A stretch of DNA of 64,000 bases from Escherichia phage PhaxI. The notes beneath the pieces are model-generated. The model was given only the letters and a program-made list of their open reading frames with translations. It did no database searches and had not been told where the DNA came from. Below, in pieces: positions 6,316 through 64,000 of this stretch (positions within the stretch are counted from its first letter, which is position 1; every line of letters begins with the position of its first letter). The stretch lies in sequence record JN673056; one strand, written 5' to 3'. A program made the translations under genes and the position numbers.

Positions 6316-6537
6316 ATGAAGAGCTTCCAGGATTTCCTTGAAGACTCTTCTGCTCCGGCAACCACGACCGCCGATGTGGGGAAACCCGAAGGCGGTATGG
6401 TTAAGGAGCCTGTCAAAAAACCAAAAGATCTTGAAGAAGAGTCTGATTTTAAAAAGATCTTTGGCAGCATTTTCAAAGATTTGGATTTATCCAAGGCGCG
6501 AAAATGGAATTTCAGGACAGGCCAATACGACGATTAA
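6316..6537 (+). CDS. hypothetical acidic/basic small protein
   Basis: 73-aa ORF immediately followed by a strong terminator. Confidence 0.45.
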   Translation: MKSFQDFLEDSSAPATTTADVGKPEGGMVKEPVKKPKDLEEESDFKKIFGSIFKDLDLSKARKWNFRTGQYDD

Positions 6538-7180: not shown

Positions 7181-7372
7181 ATGCTACGTTGCAAAAGAGG
7201 TTCCAACTCCTTTAAGTTAGGCATGCTGACTGGAGTAACGTTCATGATTGCTTTAGACAGCCTTGTGGGACTGCTTTCCCTTCCTGATTTTAGGATGGAA
7301 CGATTCATATTGTTAGTTCTATTTGGCGGCGTCTCTATTATCTGTACCCTGAAAGCATATAAAAAGATTTGA
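7181..7372 (+). CDS. small hydrophobic (membrane) protein
   Basis: 63-aa ORF with two hydrophobic stretches; RBS GGAGGTGA 5 nt upstream of ATG. Confidence 0.5.
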   Translation: MLRCKRGSNSFKLGMLTGVTFMIALDSLVGLLSLPDFRMERFILLVLFGGVSIICTLKAYKKI

Positions 7373-7412
7373 CCTGATTACACACAGCAATTTTGATTTG
7401 AGACCCTATATC

Positions 7413-7898
7413 ATGCTCCCATTACTCAATGTTCCAAAAGAACGTATGACGCCGGATAGTGAAGGCAAGACACATTACAACATATACAGTCGAAGCCGCA
7501 CCGAACTAGGCAGATTCCTTTCCCATTTTGCATACCATCCCATGGATACTGTTGATGGTAATTTCAACTCAATAGAAAGCTACTGGTATTGGCTAAAATA
7601 TCGCCACGACGACTTGCGTAGTCTTTATGGGAACGACGCCAAGCAATTTGGACAAACCCTGGCCAAGTCACGCATCGTTGTATTGTCCCCTGATGATCCC
7701 AAATTTAAACGAGACATTATCGCAGCAACGAGTCAAAAATTGCTGACAATGCCATCCAAGTTGAGATTCCAATTGGCCCATAGCCGTCTCCCCCTGATTC
7801 ACGCTTATGAACATCAGGGGAAATACAGTTTTCAAAACTCTATGGATTTTATCATACAGCATATTAACCGCTTCCGTCTAGAAGGATATTTGAAATGA
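7413..7898 (+). CDS. NADAR (YbiA/DUF1768)-like protein
   Basis: Segment HYNIYSRSRTELGRFLSHFAYHP...DGNFNSIESYWYWLKY matches the N-terminal signature of YbiA/NADAR proteins (FYS...G.FSNF..P...DG...SEHYFQA.K); the C-terminal NADAR motif was not recognised; the track ORF uses a TTG at 7398, first ATG is 7413. Confidence 0.4.
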   Translation: MLPLLNVPKERMTPDSEGKTHYNIYSRSRTELGRFLSHFAYHPMDTVDGNFNSIESYWYWLKYRHDDLRSLYGNDAKQFGQTLAKSRIVVLSPDDPKFKRDIIAATSQKLLTMPSKLRFQLAHSRLPLIHAYEHQGKYSFQNSMDFIIQHINRFRLEGYLK

Positions 7899-14270: not shown

Positions 14271-14898
14271 ATCTAATTTCTTGGCCGTCGCTGATAGCGA
14301 AACTCTCGGTCGTTGGGATGATGCTGTCATGTTGTCTTGGGCACAGACTATCGCCGACCTGACCAAGCGTTATACTCTTCAGCAGCTTGTTGTAGAGCGC
14401 ACGACATTTATCAAACTGAATGTCAAAGAACAGATTGAACTTGGCCGTGTGAAAGACCAGGGCACTGTGGAATGGTGGCTGGGTACAGGTAAACGCAACC
14501 CGTGCGACGCCGCCCGAGCTATCAGTCTATATCCGACCGACAAGGATATTTCTATTTTCAAATTGGCCGATGAAATTCGCAAGGGATGCCATCGCCTTGG
14601 GATCGACCCGCGATCGGTTGACTGGTGTGATAGGAATCTGTTTGACCTACGCAAGGCTCAGCACATCATTGAGGTGACGTGTAAGCAAGATTCCAACGAA
14701 CCTTGGGTCTATCACCACACATTTGACATCGTAAGCTGGCTGAAGGGTATTGGGCAGCAGGATCGATATGCTGGTATCAAGGCGTGGGAACTGGAAGGTA
14801 TGATCTATCATGACCCTCGTTATGATGCGGCGCTTGACTGGCTACGCATTCAGAAAACCATGGAAGACCTGATGGGGGCTGAAAGGTGGAAAGGATGA
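14263..14898 (+). CDS. DEDDh-type 3'-5' exonuclease (DexA-like)
   Basis: Exo I-like FLAVADSETLG and Exo III-like YHDPRYDAALD motifs. Confidence 0.45.
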   Translation: MYKSNFLAVADSETLGRWDDAVMLSWAQTIADLTKRYTLQQLVVERTTFIKLNVKEQIELGRVKDQGTVEWWLGTGKRNPCDAARAISLYPTDKDISIFKLADEIRKGCHRLGIDPRSVDWCDRNLFDLRKAQHIIEVTCKQDSNEPWVYHHTFDIVSWLKGIGQQDRYAGIKAWELEGMIYHDPRYDAALDWLRIQKTMEDLMGAERWKG

Positions 14899-17939: not shown

Positions 17940-18281
17940 ATGATTTCATTAAAAGAAATGTACGAACGCCTCGAAGAACTGAAATCTAAAGAACGTCTGT
18001 ATTCAGAAGAGAATGCAGAAATGTCAGATCTTATCGAAAAAATTGCGTTGCGTGAAAAGTATCTTCAACGTTATATCAATCAATCACCTCACATTGTTGA
18101 ACGTGTGAACGTTGAACTGGAAAAACTGTCCCCAATCACGTATGACAAATTGGGTATGGATAAAGTCCACACGGCTATCTCTGGTGTTGTGAACTCTATG
18201 TTGGCGTTGGGACAAGTATTTGGTCGCCAGGACCATGATGATCTTATTTTCTACATTGAGAAAAATGTGGTGGTCAAATGA
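17940..18281 (+). CDS. hypothetical protein
   Basis: Track ORF begins at TTG inside the terminator; first ATG 17940 (MISLKEMY...) preceded by GGGAGAGAC. Confidence 0.4.
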   Translation: MISLKEMYERLEELKSKERLYSEENAEMSDLIEKIALREKYLQRYINQSPHIVERVNVELEKLSPITYDKLGMDKVHTAISGVVNSMLALGQVFGRQDHDDLIFYIEKNVVVK

Positions 18282-18685
18282 AACGTTATCGCCTGAAGTT
18301 TGAGTTAACTCGAAGGGAAGACAACGAACTCATATATGGGGAAATTTTCATATATGATCCTTATGATACGGAATACACTGAATGGCTGAAGATAATATTG
18401 GCTGGTGAAGTCGATAAAGTATACCGTGCCATTGAAAAGGACGCCAAAGGGGTATTAAGTTTTGGTCATCTTCGAGTAGCGGCCATGATTGGTTCAGCTT
18501 TAGAAATAGTGTCTGAAGCGATAGCCATAGATCTACCAGGGGAACATATCTTCATCCGTGAATCTAAAGTTGATATGGCAACGAATTATGTGATGAAATT
18601 GACCTTGACAGAAAATATGGAAAATAACAAACCAAGTATTTTCCGCCGTTTCATGAACAAATTAAAGGGTGTTAAAAATGATTAA
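18278..18685 (+). CDS. hypothetical protein
   Basis: 135-aa ORF. Confidence 0.4.
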   Translation: MKRYRLKFELTRREDNELIYGEIFIYDPYDTEYTEWLKIILAGEVDKVYRAIEKDAKGVLSFGHLRVAAMIGSALEIVSEAIAIDLPGEHIFIRESKVDMATNYVMKLTLTENMENNKPSIFRRFMNKLKGVKND

Positions 18686-25388: not shown

Positions 25389-26051
25389 TCAAATTCCGTG
25401 GGCAAGGATTAGCTCACGGAGTTTTCCTTTTGTGTATTCTGTGTTTTCATCAGGAACAACTGAATTGGTTTTCTTTAATAAAAAGGACTCAGAGTTCCAA
25501 TAGATGTCATCCTTGAGTATTGTATCATATAAATGGATGAACCCCACTACTTTATTCAATCCAACTAGAAACCAAATTGGATAGCGTTTAACAATAATAT
25601 CTGTCAGTAAAGGTGGATGCCCATTACCATTTCCTTTGATATATTGGATAAAATTCACGCCTCTTTCTTTTATCTCAGGGATCATATATCTCTCAAAATG
25701 TTCAAGAAAATTATATGAGAAGTTGTCATACAGGCGGCGATATTCATTATAATTTTCTTGAGCCTGACGGGTGAGTAATGTTGTCACCCATGTTTTTGGT
25801 GATTTAACAAAGTTGGCGATGATATAATTTTCCACCACTTCACCCTGGGAAGATTCAAACCGACGAGCAAGTTTGGCAAATTGTTTGGCCACACCCTGTT
25901 TAGAATAGAACGTTTCAAACTTGTAATTGTTCATCGGCCCATACAGGCCATAATCAAAATCTTTGGTGGTGAAATGCAACTTGATCGCCATATATATGCA
26001 ATAAACGTTAAATGCACGTTCGTATTGCATTTTCTCCCACTCAGTTATCAT
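25389..26051 (-). CDS. 59: helicase loader (gp59-like)
   Basis: 220 aa; pattern Y.IY.AIK.H...D...Y and spacing resemble T4 gp59 (217 aa) as recalled. Confidence 0.45.
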   Translation of the reverse strand: MITEWEKMQYERAFNVYCIYMAIKLHFTTKDFDYGLYGPMNNYKFETFYSKQGVAKQFAKLARRFESSQGEVVENYIIANFVKSPKTWVTTLLTRQAQENYNEYRRLYDNFSYNFLEHFERYMIPEIKERGVNFIQYIKGNGNGHPPLLTDIIVKRYPIWFLVGLNKVVGFIHLYDTILKDDIYWNSESFLLKKTNSVVPDENTEYTKGKLRELILAHGI

Positions 26052-26192
26052 GGCGTTTCTCCCTGCTTTTCTGTTTCTGTAATCTGCTGCGTTCAGAACA
26101 GAACTGATTGAACTCCGTCACCAAGCCTTTCTCCTTTATAAAGAGAATGGCGTTTCGAAGCAATTCCAATCTTGGCATATGACGGCGGATTT

Positions 26193-58725: not shown

Positions 58726-59079
58726 TTAGGACAATTGCTTCAGTTTGTAAATCGTTTGATAGCACAAAGTTTTGATTTCATCAAGCGTATTTTGAAGATG
58801 GCTGTCGCATTGACCATAAATTCCGTTTACGTCGATAACAACACTGTTGACATACGATATAGGATCTGGGTTGTACAGTTTAATATTCTCAAACCCTGGG
58901 ACATATACACCACCCGCGCCGATATATGCCTCTGTGAAGGTATCCAGCAAGTCCTCCAGTTCCCCGTAGAACTCCCCGAGTGCCTTGTGCTTGGCATAGG
59001 ACGTTGTAACGAAGTGGAGGGCATGGGAGTGGGCTATAGCAAGCAGTCCACGGTTGATGAATATACTCGCATTGACCAT
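58726..59079 (-). CDS. hypothetical protein
   Basis: Start trimmed to ATG 59079 (MVNASIFINRG...) after AGGGG; track ORF start overlaps the upstream terminator. Confidence 0.4.
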   Translation of the reverse strand: MVNASIFINRGLLAIAHSHALHFVTTSYAKHKALGEFYGELEDLLDTFTEAYIGAGGVYVPGFENIKLYNPDPISYVNSVVIDVNGIYGQCDSHLQNTLDEIKTLCYQTIYKLKQLS

Positions 59080-59100
59080 GATATTTACCCCTAAAAAGAA

Positions 59101-59125
59101 AATCCCCCTGTATTTAGGGGGATTG
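59101..59125 (-). terminator. Rho-independent terminator
   Basis: AAUCCCCCU-AAAUACA-GGGGGAUU followed by UUCUUUUU on the minus strand. Confidence 0.5.
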
Positions 59126-59135
59126 TATTTTATAA

Positions 59136-59681
59136 TCACTTTTTACCAAAAAACGATTTTAATAAATTATCAGGAATTTTTGGAAGACCTAATTTTGCCG
59201 CCAGTTCTTCTGGGGAATTACCCAAAATTTTTCTACCGTTGATGAGACCACCAACAAATTTGGTTCGATCTGTTGGACTGCGAAGGATAGTGGAGGCACC
59301 GCCAACTTTTGCGTCATACATCAGAATATGAGCGCCACGGTCACCGACGAAACGCCAGCCTTCCGCTTCAGTAACCTGACCTTTGTCAGCTGACTTGCCG
59401 AAGAAAAATTCAAAACCATCATGGACGGCAACAACTTCTTGGCCTTGGGTAATGCCGTGGGTCTGGTCTGGAGTTAGCTTCACTTTGATGGTGTTGCCAT
59501 TAGTCAATTCCAGATTATAGATGTCGGCCTGATTATCTGGAGTGATCTGGGTCACGGTGGCACCAGTACACCATTGGGTTCCGTCGGCCTGTTTGGTGAT
59601 GGTTACACTTTTGCCTTGTATGCCGCCATGAGTTTGCGGTTGTTGAGCTTGTTCTTTAAAATATTCGATAAACGGTTTCAT
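59136..59681 (-). CDS. hypothetical protein, candidate capsid-packaged (internal) protein; paralog of a segment of the 795-aa neighbour
   Basis: N-terminus MKPFIEYFKEQ resembles T4 capsid-targeting sequences (MKTYQEFIAEA); C-terminal 120 aa align with residues about 170-300 of ORF 59733..62120 (shared ...SP...LGLP(K/Q)IP.N.L..F). Confidence 0.4.
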   Translation of the reverse strand: MKPFIEYFKEQAQQPQTHGGIQGKSVTITKQADGTQWCTGATVTQITPDNQADIYNLELTNGNTIKVKLTPDQTHGITQGQEVVAVHDGFEFFFGKSADKGQVTEAEGWRFVGDRGAHILMYDAKVGGASTILRSPTDRTKFVGGLINGRKILGNSPEELAAKLGLPKIPDNLLKSFFGKK

Positions 59682-59732
59682 CGTGGATCTCCTAAGGATT
59701 TTGATGTATTTAGCCCCCGAAGGGGCTATGAC

Positions 59733-62120
59733 TTATTTCAGACTAATCTGAAGATTACCACCCAGCGATTGTTCATATTCACTGTATGCACTATCACCAT
59801 TACTCATAGCCCATTCGTCGGATTGGCGAGCGCGTTCAAGAGTCATGAGATTTGGCTCGGTAGGATTATAGCCTTTAGATTTCGCGTCGTTGTATACCGT
59901 TTGCAGGTATTGGTTGGCACGGTTGATCTGATCCTTGAATTCACGATATGCTCCTTCGGTCGTATTGCGACGGAAAGTGATATCCCAGGCAACATTCAGA
60001 ACTGTACCATTACTGGCTGTGTATACCTGCCAATCCAGATCTCGTCCATTAGGAGCGCTATCACGAATGGATCCGGCATAGGTGGCCAGATCGCCTGCAT
60101 TCTTACCACCAGCGACCTGATCTTTCGCCCGAGCCAAAGCATCAATGACTGCCGTGCGGTTTTTGGACTGTGCCAGATCTTTGTCTTGGAACATAATTGC
60201 ACCAAACTTACTGACGGTGATATCATTCAGGAACAGCTTGTTCGGGTTATAGTTTGATGAACCAAGATGGCTCAATTGAGCCGCAGCGTCTTTCAGGCGT
60301 TGTGAAGTCTCATTCAATGCATCTTGCACAGACTTGACAGATAACTGAATGTCATATCCGCTGCTATTGACTACATTTCGGCCATTTTCTGTCAGCATGG
60401 TCGTGATGTTGGCCTTATTACGATCGAAGTCGTAAGTCACGTTCGTAACGAACCGTGCGGCTTGCAGCTGGCTACCCGCAGGGAACTGGAAGTCCCAAGC
60501 CACAGAGAACCCATGAACGGTTTCACCAAATATCTTCGCATTGCTTGGGGCTTTCAGGTTCGCAGTGATGACAGCGTTATCACTGGAATTTGTGTTGATT
60601 TCGCCGAAGATAGTCTTCCCATCAGAAGACTGGACCATCAGAGTATCTTTGCTGCGCCAGTCATAACGAACAATAAACGTCGTTCGAGGGAACTCTTTTA
60701 TCAGATCGAGTTTGACTGCCTTACCCAGAGTAAATCGATTTAACAATGCATCGGCGATCTTCAAAGTAAACGAAATACAATCGACATAAGAATAACCCTG
60801 AGAACGGGAAACCTTTTGAATCGGGTATGGGGCACCGTTGATCGGAACAACACGACATTCCACTTCACCGTTGAACTGAGAATCAGCAGCACGGGATATC
60901 GCACTGACGATTTCAAAAGCAGCGTTTTTCACGTCGCCTTCCAGCATCAGCTGTTCATTGCCAGATAAATCAGAAACCACTTCTACAGAAAGTTTTCCGT
61001 TGACAATTCCCCAGAAATAAACCTGAATGTCCAGACCACCCGAAGTACGATATTTGCCCGCGCCGATTCGTGTTAGTTTCTCACCTGCATACATACCGAC
61101 CTGTTGTGGAGCATATGTGTCTACAATCCCCAGAAGGCGAGCAATATAACCCTGATTTCGTAAGTCATCCACAGATCCTGTTTTTGGCAAAGTCTGCATG
61201 TCTATTTTTCCAGAATCCCCCGTCATCTCTTTCCAGAAGATGGACGACTGCTTGGTGAAATCATTCAGAATATTCACAGGGATCTGCGGTAATCCCAGTT
61301 GGCGTACAATAGCGTCTGGGGATTGAGCGCGGATCCGTTTCTCGTTCATGATACTACCAGCATACACACCAGGTTCATTCGCGTGAGGTGCGATATTGGC
61401 GGTAATAGTCCGCCCACGTTCTTTACCAGACCAGACCAGCATAGGCTGAGTATGATCAGCTTTGGTCAGAATCCAGCGAGAATCGGCATTTATGGATTGG
61501 CTCAAATCATCCATGTCACCTTGTAGTGCGGCGTCACGAGCAGCCTGGTCAGGAACGTCACCGACTTTGTCTGGGTCGTCCCAAGTCACGCCTTTCATTT
61601 TCGGACCATCGAATACCTGAGCAGGATCCTTACCTTTACGCACAACCCATACGAATGCACGATCAGGGATAGGGGTATACGTCAGGTCCATGACATTGAG
61701 CTTCTGCTTCAGGCCGGACTGACGGATGATCTTCGGCAGGAGGGTAACACCACGTTCCAATGCTTTCTTGGAGAAGTTAATTGCAAAGCCGTCAATGGTT
61801 TTCCCCAAAGGCGTCGCCATGAATTGCTTTGTTGCTTCGATCATGGATGCGATGACACGCATTGGGTTTTTGAAACGACCGATTGCGTCTGGATAGGTCG
61901 AACCACGTTTCTGGCCTATGAAGACCTGACGAACGTTCTTGCCCAGCCCCTGCGGGGTATAAAATTGGATGCGGAATTCTTTTTCGTCTTCATCAACAAA
62001 TGTGAAGAAAATGTCACCAGCGTTCTTCTTACCGAATGTCAATTCATACGGGGATGAGTTAAACGCTTCGTCTAATTGTTTAGACTCTTCAAGAAAGTTC
62101 AAGAAAGATGGGATGGCCAT
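59733..62120 (-). CDS. large hypothetical protein, candidate capsid-packaged/injected protein
   Basis: 795 aa; N-terminus MAIPSFLNFLEESKQLDEA contains L-x-E motifs typical of prohead-protease-cleaved targeting peptides; internal domain paralogous to ORF 59136..59681. Confidence 0.45.
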   Translation of the reverse strand: MAIPSFLNFLEESKQLDEAFNSSPYELTFGKKNAGDIFFTFVDEDEKEFRIQFYTPQGLGKNVRQVFIGQKRGSTYPDAIGRFKNPMRVIASMIEATKQFMATPLGKTIDGFAINFSKKALERGVTLLPKIIRQSGLKQKLNVMDLTYTPIPDRAFVWVVRKGKDPAQVFDGPKMKGVTWDDPDKVGDVPDQAARDAALQGDMDDLSQSINADSRWILTKADHTQPMLVWSGKERGRTITANIAPHANEPGVYAGSIMNEKRIRAQSPDAIVRQLGLPQIPVNILNDFTKQSSIFWKEMTGDSGKIDMQTLPKTGSVDDLRNQGYIARLLGIVDTYAPQQVGMYAGEKLTRIGAGKYRTSGGLDIQVYFWGIVNGKLSVEVVSDLSGNEQLMLEGDVKNAAFEIVSAISRAADSQFNGEVECRVVPINGAPYPIQKVSRSQGYSYVDCISFTLKIADALLNRFTLGKAVKLDLIKEFPRTTFIVRYDWRSKDTLMVQSSDGKTIFGEINTNSSDNAVITANLKAPSNAKIFGETVHGFSVAWDFQFPAGSQLQAARFVTNVTYDFDRNKANITTMLTENGRNVVNSSGYDIQLSVKSVQDALNETSQRLKDAAAQLSHLGSSNYNPNKLFLNDITVSKFGAIMFQDKDLAQSKNRTAVIDALARAKDQVAGGKNAGDLATYAGSIRDSAPNGRDLDWQVYTASNGTVLNVAWDITFRRNTTEGAYREFKDQINRANQYLQTVYNDAKSKGYNPTEPNLMTLERARQSDEWAMSNGDSAYSEYEQSLGGNLQISLK

Positions 62121-62198
62121 TGTAATTCTCCTGATTATAAAATCGGTGCGGTTTCCCTTAATTAGCGAAAAGAAAGGGATGCTAACACCCCTTTATTC

Positions 62199-62474
62199 TT
62201 AACGACGGAACGGGCGAGACGCGTTTTGGCGATTGTTGTAATTCTTATCAAATTGTGCCAACGCCGCCGGACTCCATTCGCGTTCCCATTCTTTGTCAAC
62301 TTCGGTTTGGTTGGCAGGTTCAATCATTTCAGCAGTAGGAAAATCGCGTTTCATAATTTCACGCAATTGTTCAGAAGGGGCGGTTTGGGCGTGGACTAAT
62401 TCTTCACCGTCGTAAACTTTGGCCATCAACCATTTGCTGCCGTAACGGATATATGCGTCGAGGATGATTTTCAT
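62199..62474 (-). CDS. hypothetical protein
   Basis: Start trimmed to ATG inside the conserved AGGAACTACATTATG context (MKIILDAYIRY...). Confidence 0.4.
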   Translation of the reverse strand: MKIILDAYIRYGSKWLMAKVYDGEELVHAQTAPSEQLREIMKRDFPTAEMIEPANQTEVDKEWEREWSPAALAQFDKNYNNRQNASRPFRR

Positions 62475-62522
62475 AATGTAGTTCCTGCTTTTCAAGTTGG
62501 TGTCGTACTGCTTATGTTTAGA

Positions 62523-62550
62523 ATTATACGTGGGTTATTGAAGAAGTAAA
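62523..62550 (-). promoter_or_regulatory. sigma70-type (T4 early-like) promoter
   Basis: Minus strand TTTACT - 16 nt - TATAAT, directly after a terminator hairpin. Confidence 0.45.
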
Positions 62551-62568
62551 GGGGCTTTTGCCCCTTTT
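62545..62568 (-). terminator. Rho-independent terminator
   Basis: GGGGC-AAAA-GCCCC followed by UUUACUUCUUC on the minus strand. Confidence 0.55.
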
Positions 62569-62578
62569 ATTGAATATT

Positions 62579-63217
62579 TTAAGGTGTTGGATTGACAACG
62601 GGAATATGGAACCTGATTCCAGAGACAATGTCCTTCAGCTGAGGCTTCCAGCCGTCCACCAGGCGGGACAACGCGTTAGAACCAGGATAGACAATAATGA
62701 TGTCGCTTCCGGTTACATTATGTTGAGGGAATTGTGACATGTATTGCTCCATCGTCACCCCTGGGTCTATCAACACAGGACCGACATCCGAAGATGCATA
62801 TGTTGCCCCCAAACCGTCGACGCCCCATGCTAGTATTCCATAATCAGGAATATTGGCTTCAGAAGTTATGGTGAATCCGAAGATACGATTCAGCGCAGAA
62901 AAATCATACACGCCGTGAGCACTGTCATATGTCAGATAACCCTTTGACAGCATATCAGCGAATATCGCGTCTGTGTCACCAGTTGCCGGAGTCGGTATGG
63001 TAAACAATAACTCACCAGCAGGAGGGGATGGATACGTGCCGAGCGCATAAAGGCACCAAGCGTCAATGCATTTCTTGATGAATGCTTCAGGCGCGACATA
63101 ATCCGCAAGGCGCATTGTACCGGAATATTCTGAAGTAATGATCCCTTCCTTCGCGCCCTGAATGGCCAGAAATACCATTATGTGTTCATATCCGGTCTGA
63201 GATGGAGTGATATTCAT
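62579..63217 (-). CDS. hypothetical protein
   Basis: 212-aa ORF; overlaps upstream stop by 1 nt. Confidence 0.45.
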   Translation of the reverse strand: MNITPSQTGYEHIMVFLAIQGAKEGIITSEYSGTMRLADYVAPEAFIKKCIDAWCLYALGTYPSPPAGELLFTIPTPATGDTDAIFADMLSKGYLTYDSAHGVYDFSALNRIFGFTITSEANIPDYGILAWGVDGLGATYASSDVGPVLIDPGVTMEQYMSQFPQHNVTGSDIIIVYPGSNALSRLVDGWKPQLKDIVSGIRFHIPVVNPTP

Positions 63218-63834
63218 TATCTGGTCCTCTTGAGTTTCTCAATCGTGCGCTTATTCATGGCGATCACTCCTGGGTCGACCTTTGGGTTTATTGCCATGCC
63301 TTTGAAAGACACACATCGTTGAAGATATTTAGCCTTCTTCACGACGTCGGCTGCATAAGAATTGGATTTCTGGTTACGATTGAACCCAGCATTGTAAGAG
63401 GAAAGGGATTTGCGGATGTTTTGGTTGTGATATTCTAGCCAGAAATTCATTTCATCAAGGGCAGCATTGGCAGCATATTCTTGATTGACCAGTAATTTGA
63501 TCGCGACATTGGCGTAACACTTCTGTGTTTTGCATCCCTCCCGTTTCCCGACGGTTTGGACGCGATTTTGAAATGCCCCCATATTAGCCGATTTGAGGTT
63601 ATTCCGCATGGATACAACATCTTCTCCGGCGCGGCTTTCCCTCCATGATATTGCGGCGAGGGTGAAACCAAGGTCTTGTTGTTTTCCCACGTGATAGGCT
63701 GTGGCCATGGTTGAAAGTTGTTGATCAGAAAACCCATAATCACATTGGGTGGTACTTTGGGAAGCGTGCACACTCCCGCTGGCAATGGTAAAGGTCACGG
63801 ACAAGGCCATGGCCTTCAACGTTGTCATCGTCAT
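63217..63834 (-). CDS. secreted lytic-transglycosylase-like protein (SLT domain) with signal peptide
   Basis: N-terminal signal peptide MTMTTLKAMALSVTFTIASGSVHA (AxA site); SLT-like catalytic region ISWRESRAGEDVVSMRNNLKSANMGAFQ (E-S ... GA.G..Q). Confidence 0.45.
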   Translation of the reverse strand: MTMTTLKAMALSVTFTIASGSVHASQSTTQCDYGFSDQQLSTMATAYHVGKQQDLGFTLAAISWRESRAGEDVVSMRNNLKSANMGAFQNRVQTVGKREGCKTQKCYANVAIKLLVNQEYAANAALDEMNFWLEYHNQNIRKSLSSYNAGFNRNQKSNSYAADVVKKAKYLQRCVSFKGMAINPKVDPGVIAMNKRTIEKLKRTR

Positions 63835-64000
63835 GATGGCGTTCCTTATGTGTTTGTCGACTTGCAGCTCGCTGGAGCCTCCTGACAGGGTTAAAAGATA
63901 AAGGGCACGTGATATTTAGTGCCCTTCACCTTATTCGTAGATCAGATGGTATGATTCCTCGATGCATTCCAACCAACCGTAGACAAATTCCATAGGATCA

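Follow-up and report, generated by a model that had tools for sequence, protein, structure and literature searches.

Two adjacent genes of Escherichia phage PhaxI probably form an Ackermannviridae counterpart of the T4 internal-protein/Alt system

Phage T4 possesses both internal proteins (IPs), which are directed to the head by a capsid-targeting sequence (CTS), and Alt, a head-packaged and injected ADP-ribosyltransferase (ART) in which an Alt-N domain (PF26846) is combined with an ADPrib_exo_Tox domain (PF03496). In the case of IPIII the first ten residues suffice for head incorporation; targeting involves residues 4 and 7 of the CTS, and processing residues 8 and 10 (PMC9026906). The respective N-termini (NC_000866) read MKTYQEFIAE/A in IPII and IPIII, MKTFKEF...ITE/A in IPI and MELITE/LFDE in Alt (a slash marks a known or predicted cleavage position). 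A further class of packaged proteins is constituted by the polyvalent effectors (Iyer et al. 2017), with examples such as DarA and DarB of phage P1 and the MuF-fusion toxins. In a 2024 review of the family Ackermannviridae the words internal, ejected, injected and ADP-ribosyl are not used. Here we describe two genes, encoding proteins of 181 and 795 amino acids (aa), in a stretch of 64,000 nucleotides from Escherichia phage PhaxI (sequence record JN673056; the whole stretch is henceforth termed the window), which probably constitute a variable locus of head-packaged proteins delivered along with the DNA, as the Ackermannviridae counterpart of the T4 IP/Alt system:

59136..59681, minus strand: gene of the 181-aa (small) protein, stop codon included; ortholog of CBA120 orf109/gp085; phrog_4048
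59733..62120, minus strand: gene of the 795-aa (large) protein, stop codon included; ortholog of CBA120 orf111/gp086; phrog_3867

The window belongs to the genus Kuttervirus of the Ackermannviridae. Over the 3.8 kb around both genes the E. coli O157 phage CBA120 shows 98.8% identity, and many Salmonella Kutterviruses show 92-97%. The large protein is 100% identical to CBA120 orf111 at the protein level and is matched by phrog_3867 over its full length. Both phrog_4048 and phrog_3867 are PHROG families with no assigned function, most records name both genes 'hypothetical protein', and sequence searches of Pfam, NCBIfam and the PDB with both proteins recovered no significant match. The locus is flanked by genes for gp46/gp47-like recombination nucleases and by a primase gene, amid early and replication genes, and its position is kept out to Vibrio phage K369.

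Both proteins have orthologs that were detected in purified virions. In CsCl-purified virions of Sajous1 (Harris et al. 2024, PMC10892097) gp214 is among the five most represented proteins, with 196 spectra as against 89 each for portal and sheath, and gp215, gp216 and gp217 are represented by 32, 20 and 10 spectra, respectively; comparison with GenBank MW021757 identifies Sajous1_214 as the ortholog of the large protein and Sajous1_215 as that of the small one. In LIMEstone1 (Adriaenssens et al.) the virion proteins ORF78, 80, 81, 82 and 85 are clustered beside the primase, with ORF81 (40.85 kDa) being detected at 55% coverage by 23 peptides. The mass of the 531-aa Limestonevirus ortholog of the large protein equals that of ORF81 plus ORF82, and size and gene order point to ORF80 as the ortholog of the small protein. 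In Vi01 the orthologs bear the label 'phage associated protein', and according to Kutter et al. 2011 the Pickard 2010 analysis identified 41 particle-associated proteins. Virion association across genera is therefore well supported. A preliminary description of the locus, made from the DNA letters alone, had interpreted it as an Alt-like large packaged protein plus a smaller internal protein and had named virion proteomics as a means of checking this; the orthologs in Sajous1 and LIMEstone1 virions, together with the Alt-N homology and the IP-type CTS described below, support that interpretation. A prohead protease of the gp21 type is also encoded in the genome, with CBA120 orf190 being 36% identical to T4 gp21 (E 1e-21) and adjacent to a gp22-like scaffold gene; both genes lie outside the 64-kb window and were seen in the 98.8%-identical CBA120.

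The small protein can be divided into three parts:

59652..59681, minus strand: IP-type CTS, residues 1-10 (MKPFIEYFKE/Q), recognised by family consensus and likeness to the T4 CTS
59367..59651, minus strand: conserved N-domain, residues 11-105, ending in the invariant E105 (GQVTE/A) and kept in all 18 aligned homologs
59139..59366, minus strand: swappable C-terminal cargo module of type A, residues 106-181, homologous to residues 212-289 of the large protein; isoelectric point (pI) 10.1

The N-termini of the family conform to a consensus MKxFxEF[LF]xE/QA, in which M1, F4 and E10 are invariant, position 7 is F, Y or H in most members and position 8 is F or L. The targeting and processing determinants of T4 are hence kept, the tag sharing with the T4 IPs its length of ten residues, the aromatic residues at positions 4 and 7, the hydrophobic residue at position 8 and the glutamate at position 10. 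Since a first motif expression had been partly built from the small-protein family itself, a scan against the T4 CTS alone was used instead. In this non-circular ranking the first ten residues of all 2002 ATG-started open reading frames (ORFs) of the window and the rest of CBA120 were scored against the IPII/IPIII decapeptide only, and the 181-aa protein ranked 6th of 2002, the three best-scoring ORFs being other small ORFs. A strict form of the motif was found in 2 of the 2002 ORFs and in none of their shuffled versions. The claim of the preliminary description that this N-terminus resembles a T4 CTS is thereby upheld.

The distal part of the small protein displays a distinctive pattern of module exchange. 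V103-T-E105 is its sole [LIV]xE site and is kept in 17 of 18 homologs, and one homolog (P0146) consists of the conserved N-domain alone and terminates at that very glutamate. The type A module is present in only 3 of the 26 homolog clusters; the remainder possess a type B or type C module after the same VTE junction, so that the 181-aa form is a minority allele of a protein whose residues 1-105 are shared and then followed by a different module. At least three unrelated C-terminal modules are joined exactly at the VTE junction. The type C module is the same as a standalone protein, Sajous1 gp216 (z = 25-28), and both begin at AK[VI]DHR, with ...VTE/AKIDHR in the fused form and MKGFPDFLKE/AKVDHR in the standalone one. 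In both contexts it starts right after a hydrophobic-x-Glu motif, as is to be expected if these junctions are cargo-releasing protease sites.

The standalone gp216 gene encodes 79 aa and sits between the genes for the small protein and a Dps-like protein (14659-14898 of the examined piece in Sajous1; 7232-7471 of that in Coodle). It is present in many relatives and absent from the window, and has its own leader, MKGFPDFLKE/AK; in P0143 and P0145 the module is fused to the carrier domain of the small protein.

Cleavage of the small protein is predicted to yield a 95-aa domain of acidic character (pI 5.2) and a 76-aa module of basic character (pI 10.1). Its AlphaFold2 (AF2) model is poor, with a predicted local distance difference test score (pLDDT) of 56 that is too low for a fold search; in this model residues 96-108 around the junction are predicted to be disordered. 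A TOBE-like (molybdate) match in the N-domain, with an E-value of 0.01, lay under the cut-off and was not used. In addition to the tag, the small protein and the T4 IPs are alike in being small virion proteins with a conserved tag and a highly variable mature part, from phages that encode a gp21-type protease. They differ in that the mature parts lack sequence similarity, in that the phage families are distinct (Ackermannviridae as opposed to Straboviridae), and in the presence here of a ~95-aa carrier domain and a second predicted site (VTE/A), neither of which is known in the T4 IPs; furthermore, cleavage and ejection are what we infer here.

The type A cargo module recurs within the large protein. 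BLASTP comparison of the two proteins recovered a single significant high-scoring segment pair (HSP) of 36 aa (small protein 142-177, large protein 253-288; 39% identity, E 7e-8), and profile-profile comparison with hhalign aligned 74 columns (small 105-178, large 212-289) with a probability of 93% and an E-value of 2.8e-7. In Smith-Waterman comparisons of the small protein to the large one, evaluated with 300 shuffles, residues 105-181 gave z = 10.9 and residues 1-104 gave z = 0.8. The similarity is real and limited to a single module of ~75 aa, and there is no whole-length paralogy. The preliminary description had given the two ORFs and their N-termini correctly, the formal pairwise alignment that it had proposed as a check is significant, and every shared motif that it had named lies inside the ~75-aa module. 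However, the similarity does not extend over the C-terminal 120 residues of the small protein as it had stated, and its term 'paralogous pair' overstates a relationship that consists in one shuffled module.

In the large protein the following regions were delineated:

62067..62120, minus strand: predicted N-terminal propeptide, residues 1-18 (MAIPSFLNFLEESKQLDE), with a predicted prohead-protease site L16-D17-E18/A19; an alternative predicted site is L10-E11-E12/S13
61590..62066, minus strand: Alt-N-like delivery module, residues 19-177, detected by hhalign against Alt-N and near-invariant in the Ackermannviridae
61485..61589, minus strand: linker, residues 178-212, predicted to be disordered by AF2
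61254..61484, minus strand: ~75-aa shared module, residues 213-289, from hhalign and the core BLASTP HSP
60054..61253, minus strand: variable central cargo region, residues 290-689, with beta-rich sandwiches and helices
59736..60053, minus strand: C-terminal module, residues 690-795, also widespread in standalone form

The N-terminal module of the large protein is homologous to the Alt-N domain. A profile of 75 N-module sequences was compared by hhalign to one of nine Alt N-termini from diverse Straboviridae, and recovered a colinear alignment of 158 columns, between residues 15-177 of the 795-aa protein and residues 3-178 of Alt, with a probability of 95.1%, a P-value of 3.4e-8 and a score of 56.2, whereas the maximum score among 100 column-shuffled controls was 19.3. 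A thin Alt profile of two sequences had given a suggestive match only (P 0.0027, probability 11%), which was resolved by the nine-sequence profile; BLASTP of the 795-aa protein against T4 Alt was not significant (E 0.58). The AF2 model of the large protein (pLDDT 73) retrieved the Alt proteins of phiAS5, SP18 and HY03 in Foldseek searches of BFVD with probabilities of 0.97-1.0, and also matched phage proteins with Zeta-toxin, deaminase and ParB/Srx domains.

The preliminary description had considered both N-termini to be CTS-like. While this holds for the small protein, that of the large protein is not of the IP type and instead matches the Alt-type N-terminus and cleavage site. According to GenBank X15811 six residues are cleaved from T4 Alt, and this site, MELITE/L, aligns with L16-D17-E18/A19 of the large protein. 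The L16-x-E18 motif is kept in 33 of 33 close homologs and in 74 of the 75 members of the wider N-module family, in which the leaders mostly comprise 7-21 residues. In the AF2 model a helix is formed by residues 6-19, with low confidence.

An exhaustive HMMER search of 1.8 billion cluster representatives recovered 130 relatives of the large protein. The region corresponding to residues ~5-190 is always located at the extreme N-terminus of its proteins, which measure 276-1677 aa and fall into over 70 representative clusters at the level of 50% identity. Within the Ackermannviridae residues 15-190 are near-invariant and the rest of the protein is a mosaic, the homologs having lengths of 531-986 aa. 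Some 55 of the 130 matches cover only residues ~660-795, mostly in proteins of 110-300 aa; these map to positions ~640-787 of the phrog_3867 profile, and the same module also terminates longer proteins that are unrelated. Of 63 N-module proteins 4 contain PF03496, the ART domain of Alt in T4, the 795-aa protein not being among them, and two relatives (P0215 and P0226) join the N-terminal part of phrog_3867 to phrog_802, the 'Alt-like RNA polymerase ADP-ribosyltransferase'. The earlier label 'Alt-like' for the large protein is thus well founded with respect to its N-terminal domain and to the relatives which join this module to an Alt-type ART.

For the 795-aa protein itself, Pfam recovered no ART domain (T4 Alt: PF03496 with E 6e-36) and BLASTP found no similarity to Alt in that region, in agreement with the preliminary description, which had recognised no ADP-ribosyltransferase signature. 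The segment preceding the shared module (residues 173-212) is acidic (pI 4.05) and has a pLDDT below 50. The cargo yielded a weak, unlocalised GNAT-like signal, Foldseek comparison of it to the PDB gave nothing at E <= 1e-3, and a match to LPD3 in the 795-aa protein (E 0.031; 14.9 bits against a cut-off of 27) was not used. Judging from these comparisons, the large protein is Alt-like at its delivery end and devoid of an ART domain.

The large protein and T4 Alt are both large virion proteins with a homologous N-domain, and the predicted L-x-E/ site of the former falls at the aligned position of the experimentally known site of the latter. T4 furthermore contains alt.-1/alt.-2 (18066-18451 of the examined piece; RefSeq note), a decayed partial duplicate of Alt-N adjoining alt, which parallels the module shared by the two proteins studied here. 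Unlike Alt, the 795-aa protein has neither an ART domain nor the R-S-E signature, its C-terminal ~600 aa are unrelated, its leader measures 18 aa rather than 6, and the similarity is too remote for detection by BLASTP or by comparison of a hidden Markov model (HMM) to sequence. With the polyvalent and packaged effectors the locus would share the association of a conserved head-incorporation module with variable delivered effectors, and the fold matches of N-module proteins to Zeta-toxin, deaminase, ParB/Srx and ART proteins are reminiscent of the polyvalent repertoire. It differs from them in that no polyvalent-protein domain of the 795-aa protein lies above its threshold, as opposed to the two or more effector or LPD domains by which polyvalent proteins are recognised, and in that the incorporation module is Alt-N-like rather than MuF or DarA-N.

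These observations suggest a potential mechanism. The MKPFIEYFKE tag would direct the small protein into the prohead scaffolding core, after which a gp21-like prohead protease would cut it after E10 and probably also after E105 (VTE/A), thereby freeing the acidic 95-aa carrier domain and the basic 76-aa cargo module. The large protein possesses a short leader, a predicted L-D-E/A protease site and a ~160-aa Alt-N-homologous domain that would serve for delivery, followed by a non-ART cargo comprising the disordered linker, the ~75-aa shared module, the beta-rich centre and the widespread C-terminal module. The peptides of the predicted removed leaders would be MKPFIEYFK from the small protein and MAIPSFLNFLEESK from the large one. 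Both proteins would then reside in the head interior and be ejected into the host, where they might play an early role in host takeover or anti-defence.

A potential regulatory signal was also noticed upstream of the small-protein gene:

59707..59726, minus strand: GCCCC-TTCG-GGGGC hairpin followed by CTAAATA, ~30 nt upstream of the start of the 181-aa gene; possible late-promoter element

The C-TAAATA motif is found 25-45 nt upstream of many CBA120 structural genes, and occurs upstream of the 181-aa gene and not of the 795-aa gene. Often a GC-rich hairpin adjoins or encloses it, as is seen upstream of the tailspike genes. Four of its six copies in the window lie within 59111-63919 on the strand of the two genes (59111, 59707, 63326 and 63913). 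It may represent a late promoter of the Ackermannviridae or part of a terminator-promoter unit, and the pattern could be taken as weak evidence for late expression of the locus.

Several neighboring genes deserve mention. Adjacent to the small-protein gene lies that of a Dps/ferritin-like DUF5856 protein (window 58726-59139, minus strand; coding sequence probably 58726-59079), which bears the RefSeq name 'starvation-inducible transcriptional regulator'. It is present in virions according to two proteomes (LIMEstone1 ORF78 and Sajous1 gp217), yet lacks a CTS-like leader; two TAAATA motifs are located upstream of its gene, one of them within a hairpin loop. On the other side a DUF7270 protein (window 62579-63217, minus strand) gives a full-length Pfam match (E 5e-120) and likewise has no leader. 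In the bering record the ortholog bears the name 'unknown structural protein [Limestone]', and size and gene order equate it with LIMEstone1 ORF85 (22.75 kDa). Next to the DUF7270 gene lies that of an orf114-like protein (window 63217-63834, minus strand), variously annotated as RegB, RNA endonuclease or Vs.1, which shows a borderline match to the SLT transglycosylase only (E 2e-4) and whose N-terminus resembles a signal peptide; the name RegB seems questionable. The CTAAATA at 63326-63332 is close to where CBA120 orf114 is annotated with a 'possible alternate site of translation initiation'. In the more distant Vibrio phage K369 (6424-12408 of the examined piece) tandem proteins of 737 and 1138 aa both possess the Alt-N-like module, with sites ...LIAE/AFN and ...LLTE/AFN, and are encoded in a syntenic position downstream of SbcCD-like genes. 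The locus is an old one and tends to undergo duplication.

CTS-like leaders are also present in other small ORFs. CBA120 orf229 (record 141368-141817, outside the window) encodes 149 aa, with a leader MKTFLEFYRE/S preceding an ART-PolyVal domain (PF18760; 41.9 bits against a cut-off of 31.2), and its homologs are labelled 'unknown structural protein' (Limestonevirus XF4), 'structural protein' (D5lw) and 'ADP-ribose transferase' (SeF6a). It is probably a capsid-targeted mini-ART and as such a functional analogue of Alt in the Ackermannviridae. By combining leader, effector-type domain and structural label, it indicates that in this phage family a virion protein with a domain of the effector type can be predicted from the leader. 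Genome-wide, the CTS is matched best by CBA120 orf223 (65 aa, MKTFGEFLTE/W; 25923-26120 of the examined piece, outside the window), which is situated within the cluster of tRNA genes and has C-TAAATA upstream; T4 ipI likewise adjoins a tRNA cluster. The second-best match to the IPII/IPIII decapeptide is a 73-aa ORF of phrog_4805 (window 6316-6537, plus strand; start MKSFQDFLEDSS). It is conserved in 276 phage records, mostly at 80% identity or more (17 at 60-80%, one lower) and always labelled hypothetical, and its leader makes it a candidate for a further small internal head protein. Counterparts of orf229 and of the 73-aa ORF with 98.6-100% protein identity to those of Kuttervirus occur in OR844942.1 ('Enterococcus phage Efm 3-10', 111 kb), which suggests that this record is a mislabelled or contaminated assembly, rather than an Enterococcus phage.

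A number of observations weigh against an IP/Alt-like nature of the locus. The first 12 residues of the large protein show no in-register match to the T4 CTS (rank 1883 of 2002), and the first site of the small protein is F-K-E, with Phe rather than Leu or Ile at position P3. An HMM of the N-module scores T4 Alt at a non-significant 5 bits, below a chance match on T4 cd.1, and the Alt-N Pfam family PF26846 is absent from the precomputed annotation of homologs of the 795-aa protein. Domain, sequence and fold searches allow no catalytic or binding function to be assigned to the cargo. The proteomes derive from whole virions, in which the interior is not separated from positions on the capsid, neck or tail, and the adjacent Dps-like and DUF7270 virion proteins have no such leaders, implying that the cluster is not uniformly CTS-dependent. 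With regard to late expression, C-TAAATA is clustered locally with no overall enrichment in the window, and the T4 late promoter TATAAATA has 2 matches where 2 are expected, none of them near either gene. Alternatively, the proteins might be associated with the head and not ejected, as leftover scaffold-core, DNA-condensing internal or capsid-bound accessory proteins with a purely structural or packaging role. In T4 the CTS and gp21 processing serve core proteins too, DNA could be bound by the 76-aa fragment and by the N-module, both of which are basic (pI 10.1 and 9.7, respectively), the extreme conservation of the N-module is as expected of a structural interaction, and no enzymatic domain was found in the searches. 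We nevertheless regard this as rather unlikely, given that the mosaic cargo (variants of 689-986 aa, three types of C-module, presence or absence of gp216) bears the signature of effectors in an arms race, that this N-module is joined to ART elsewhere and, judging by fold matches, also occurs in Zeta-toxin, deaminase and ParB/Srx proteins, and that Alt and the IPs, to which they are closest among characterised proteins, are ejected (PMC9026906).

The virion data could also be explained by a location in the tail or baseplate. The names 'tail completion protein' and 'tail fiber protein' are attached to the large protein in some database records, and gp214-217 are proposed by Harris et al. 2024 (PMC10892097) to constitute a tail-borne 'ferrojan horse' operon for the entry of iron and molybdate. 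We traced the 'tail completion protein' label in that study to the ortholog from FrontPhageNews (P0021) of the same group, whereas genuine gp3-like tail completion (CBA120 orf169) and gp15-like sheath stabilizer (orf202) proteins are encoded elsewhere, and neither protein matches a tail family, including gp3 and gp15, in Pfam, PHROG or NCBIfam. Tail parts are normally without a CTS-like leader, an Alt-N domain or cargo swaps at Glu/Ala junctions, and the locus is situated among replication and early genes, distant from the tail module. As Harris et al. (PMC10892097) found no dependence on TonB or FeoB, and in view of the lack of a tail-family match and the CTS and Alt-N features, the 'ferrojan horse' reading was rejected, and a structural role in tail or baseplate in general seems improbable. 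That both are abundant late non-structural proteins which merely co-purify with virions, with a coincidental resemblance to the CTS, appears very improbable indeed: plainly non-structural proteins such as rIIB, ligase and PhoH do occur in the same proteomes, but at low counts, whereas the orthologs were recovered by independent studies from different genera with different purification methods, with 196 spectra in Sajous1, where portal and sheath had 89 each, and with 55% coverage in LIMEstone1, and the motif statistics and Alt-N homology are beyond chance.

Head packaging and co-delivery with the DNA being the preferred explanation, the coincidence of module boundaries with predicted protease sites raises the possibility, which we advance tentatively, that prohead-protease sites double as recombination-tolerant cassette boundaries, such that any module placed after a hydrophobic-x-Glu motif would be packaged and then freed, with Alt-N serving as a general head-delivery domain. 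If so, effectors such as the shared 75-aa module, gp216, the type B module and ART-PolyVal would shuffle between standalone genes, the small carrier and the large Alt-N protein, and Alt-N would head a much larger group of injected proteins for anti-defence or takeover, most of them uncharacterised, spanning more than 70 clusters (at 50% identity) and reaching 1677 aa. What appears to be new relative to T4 is the recognition of such a system in the Ackermannviridae, Alt-N as a general delivery module for non-ART cargo, the two-step carrier-plus-cargo organization of the small protein, and the correspondence between cassette boundaries and predicted protease sites, which offers a simple, testable idea on how effector repertoires evolve.

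The Ackermannviridae, including CBA120, Vi01, Det7 and LIMEstone, are the object of much study as biocontrol and therapy phages, and 50-60% of their genomes is still hypothetical. Interpretation of the locus in terms of packaged effectors replaces the misleading 'tail completion protein' and 'ferrojan horse operon' labels, and allows Alt-N to be defined as a portable delivery module found on many cargos. By analogy with T4 CTS fusions, it might also provide a route for loading foreign proteins into Kuttervirus heads. For the phages themselves, the locus supplies candidate proteins for host takeover or anti-defence in the first minute of infection, and its variation may shape their host range.

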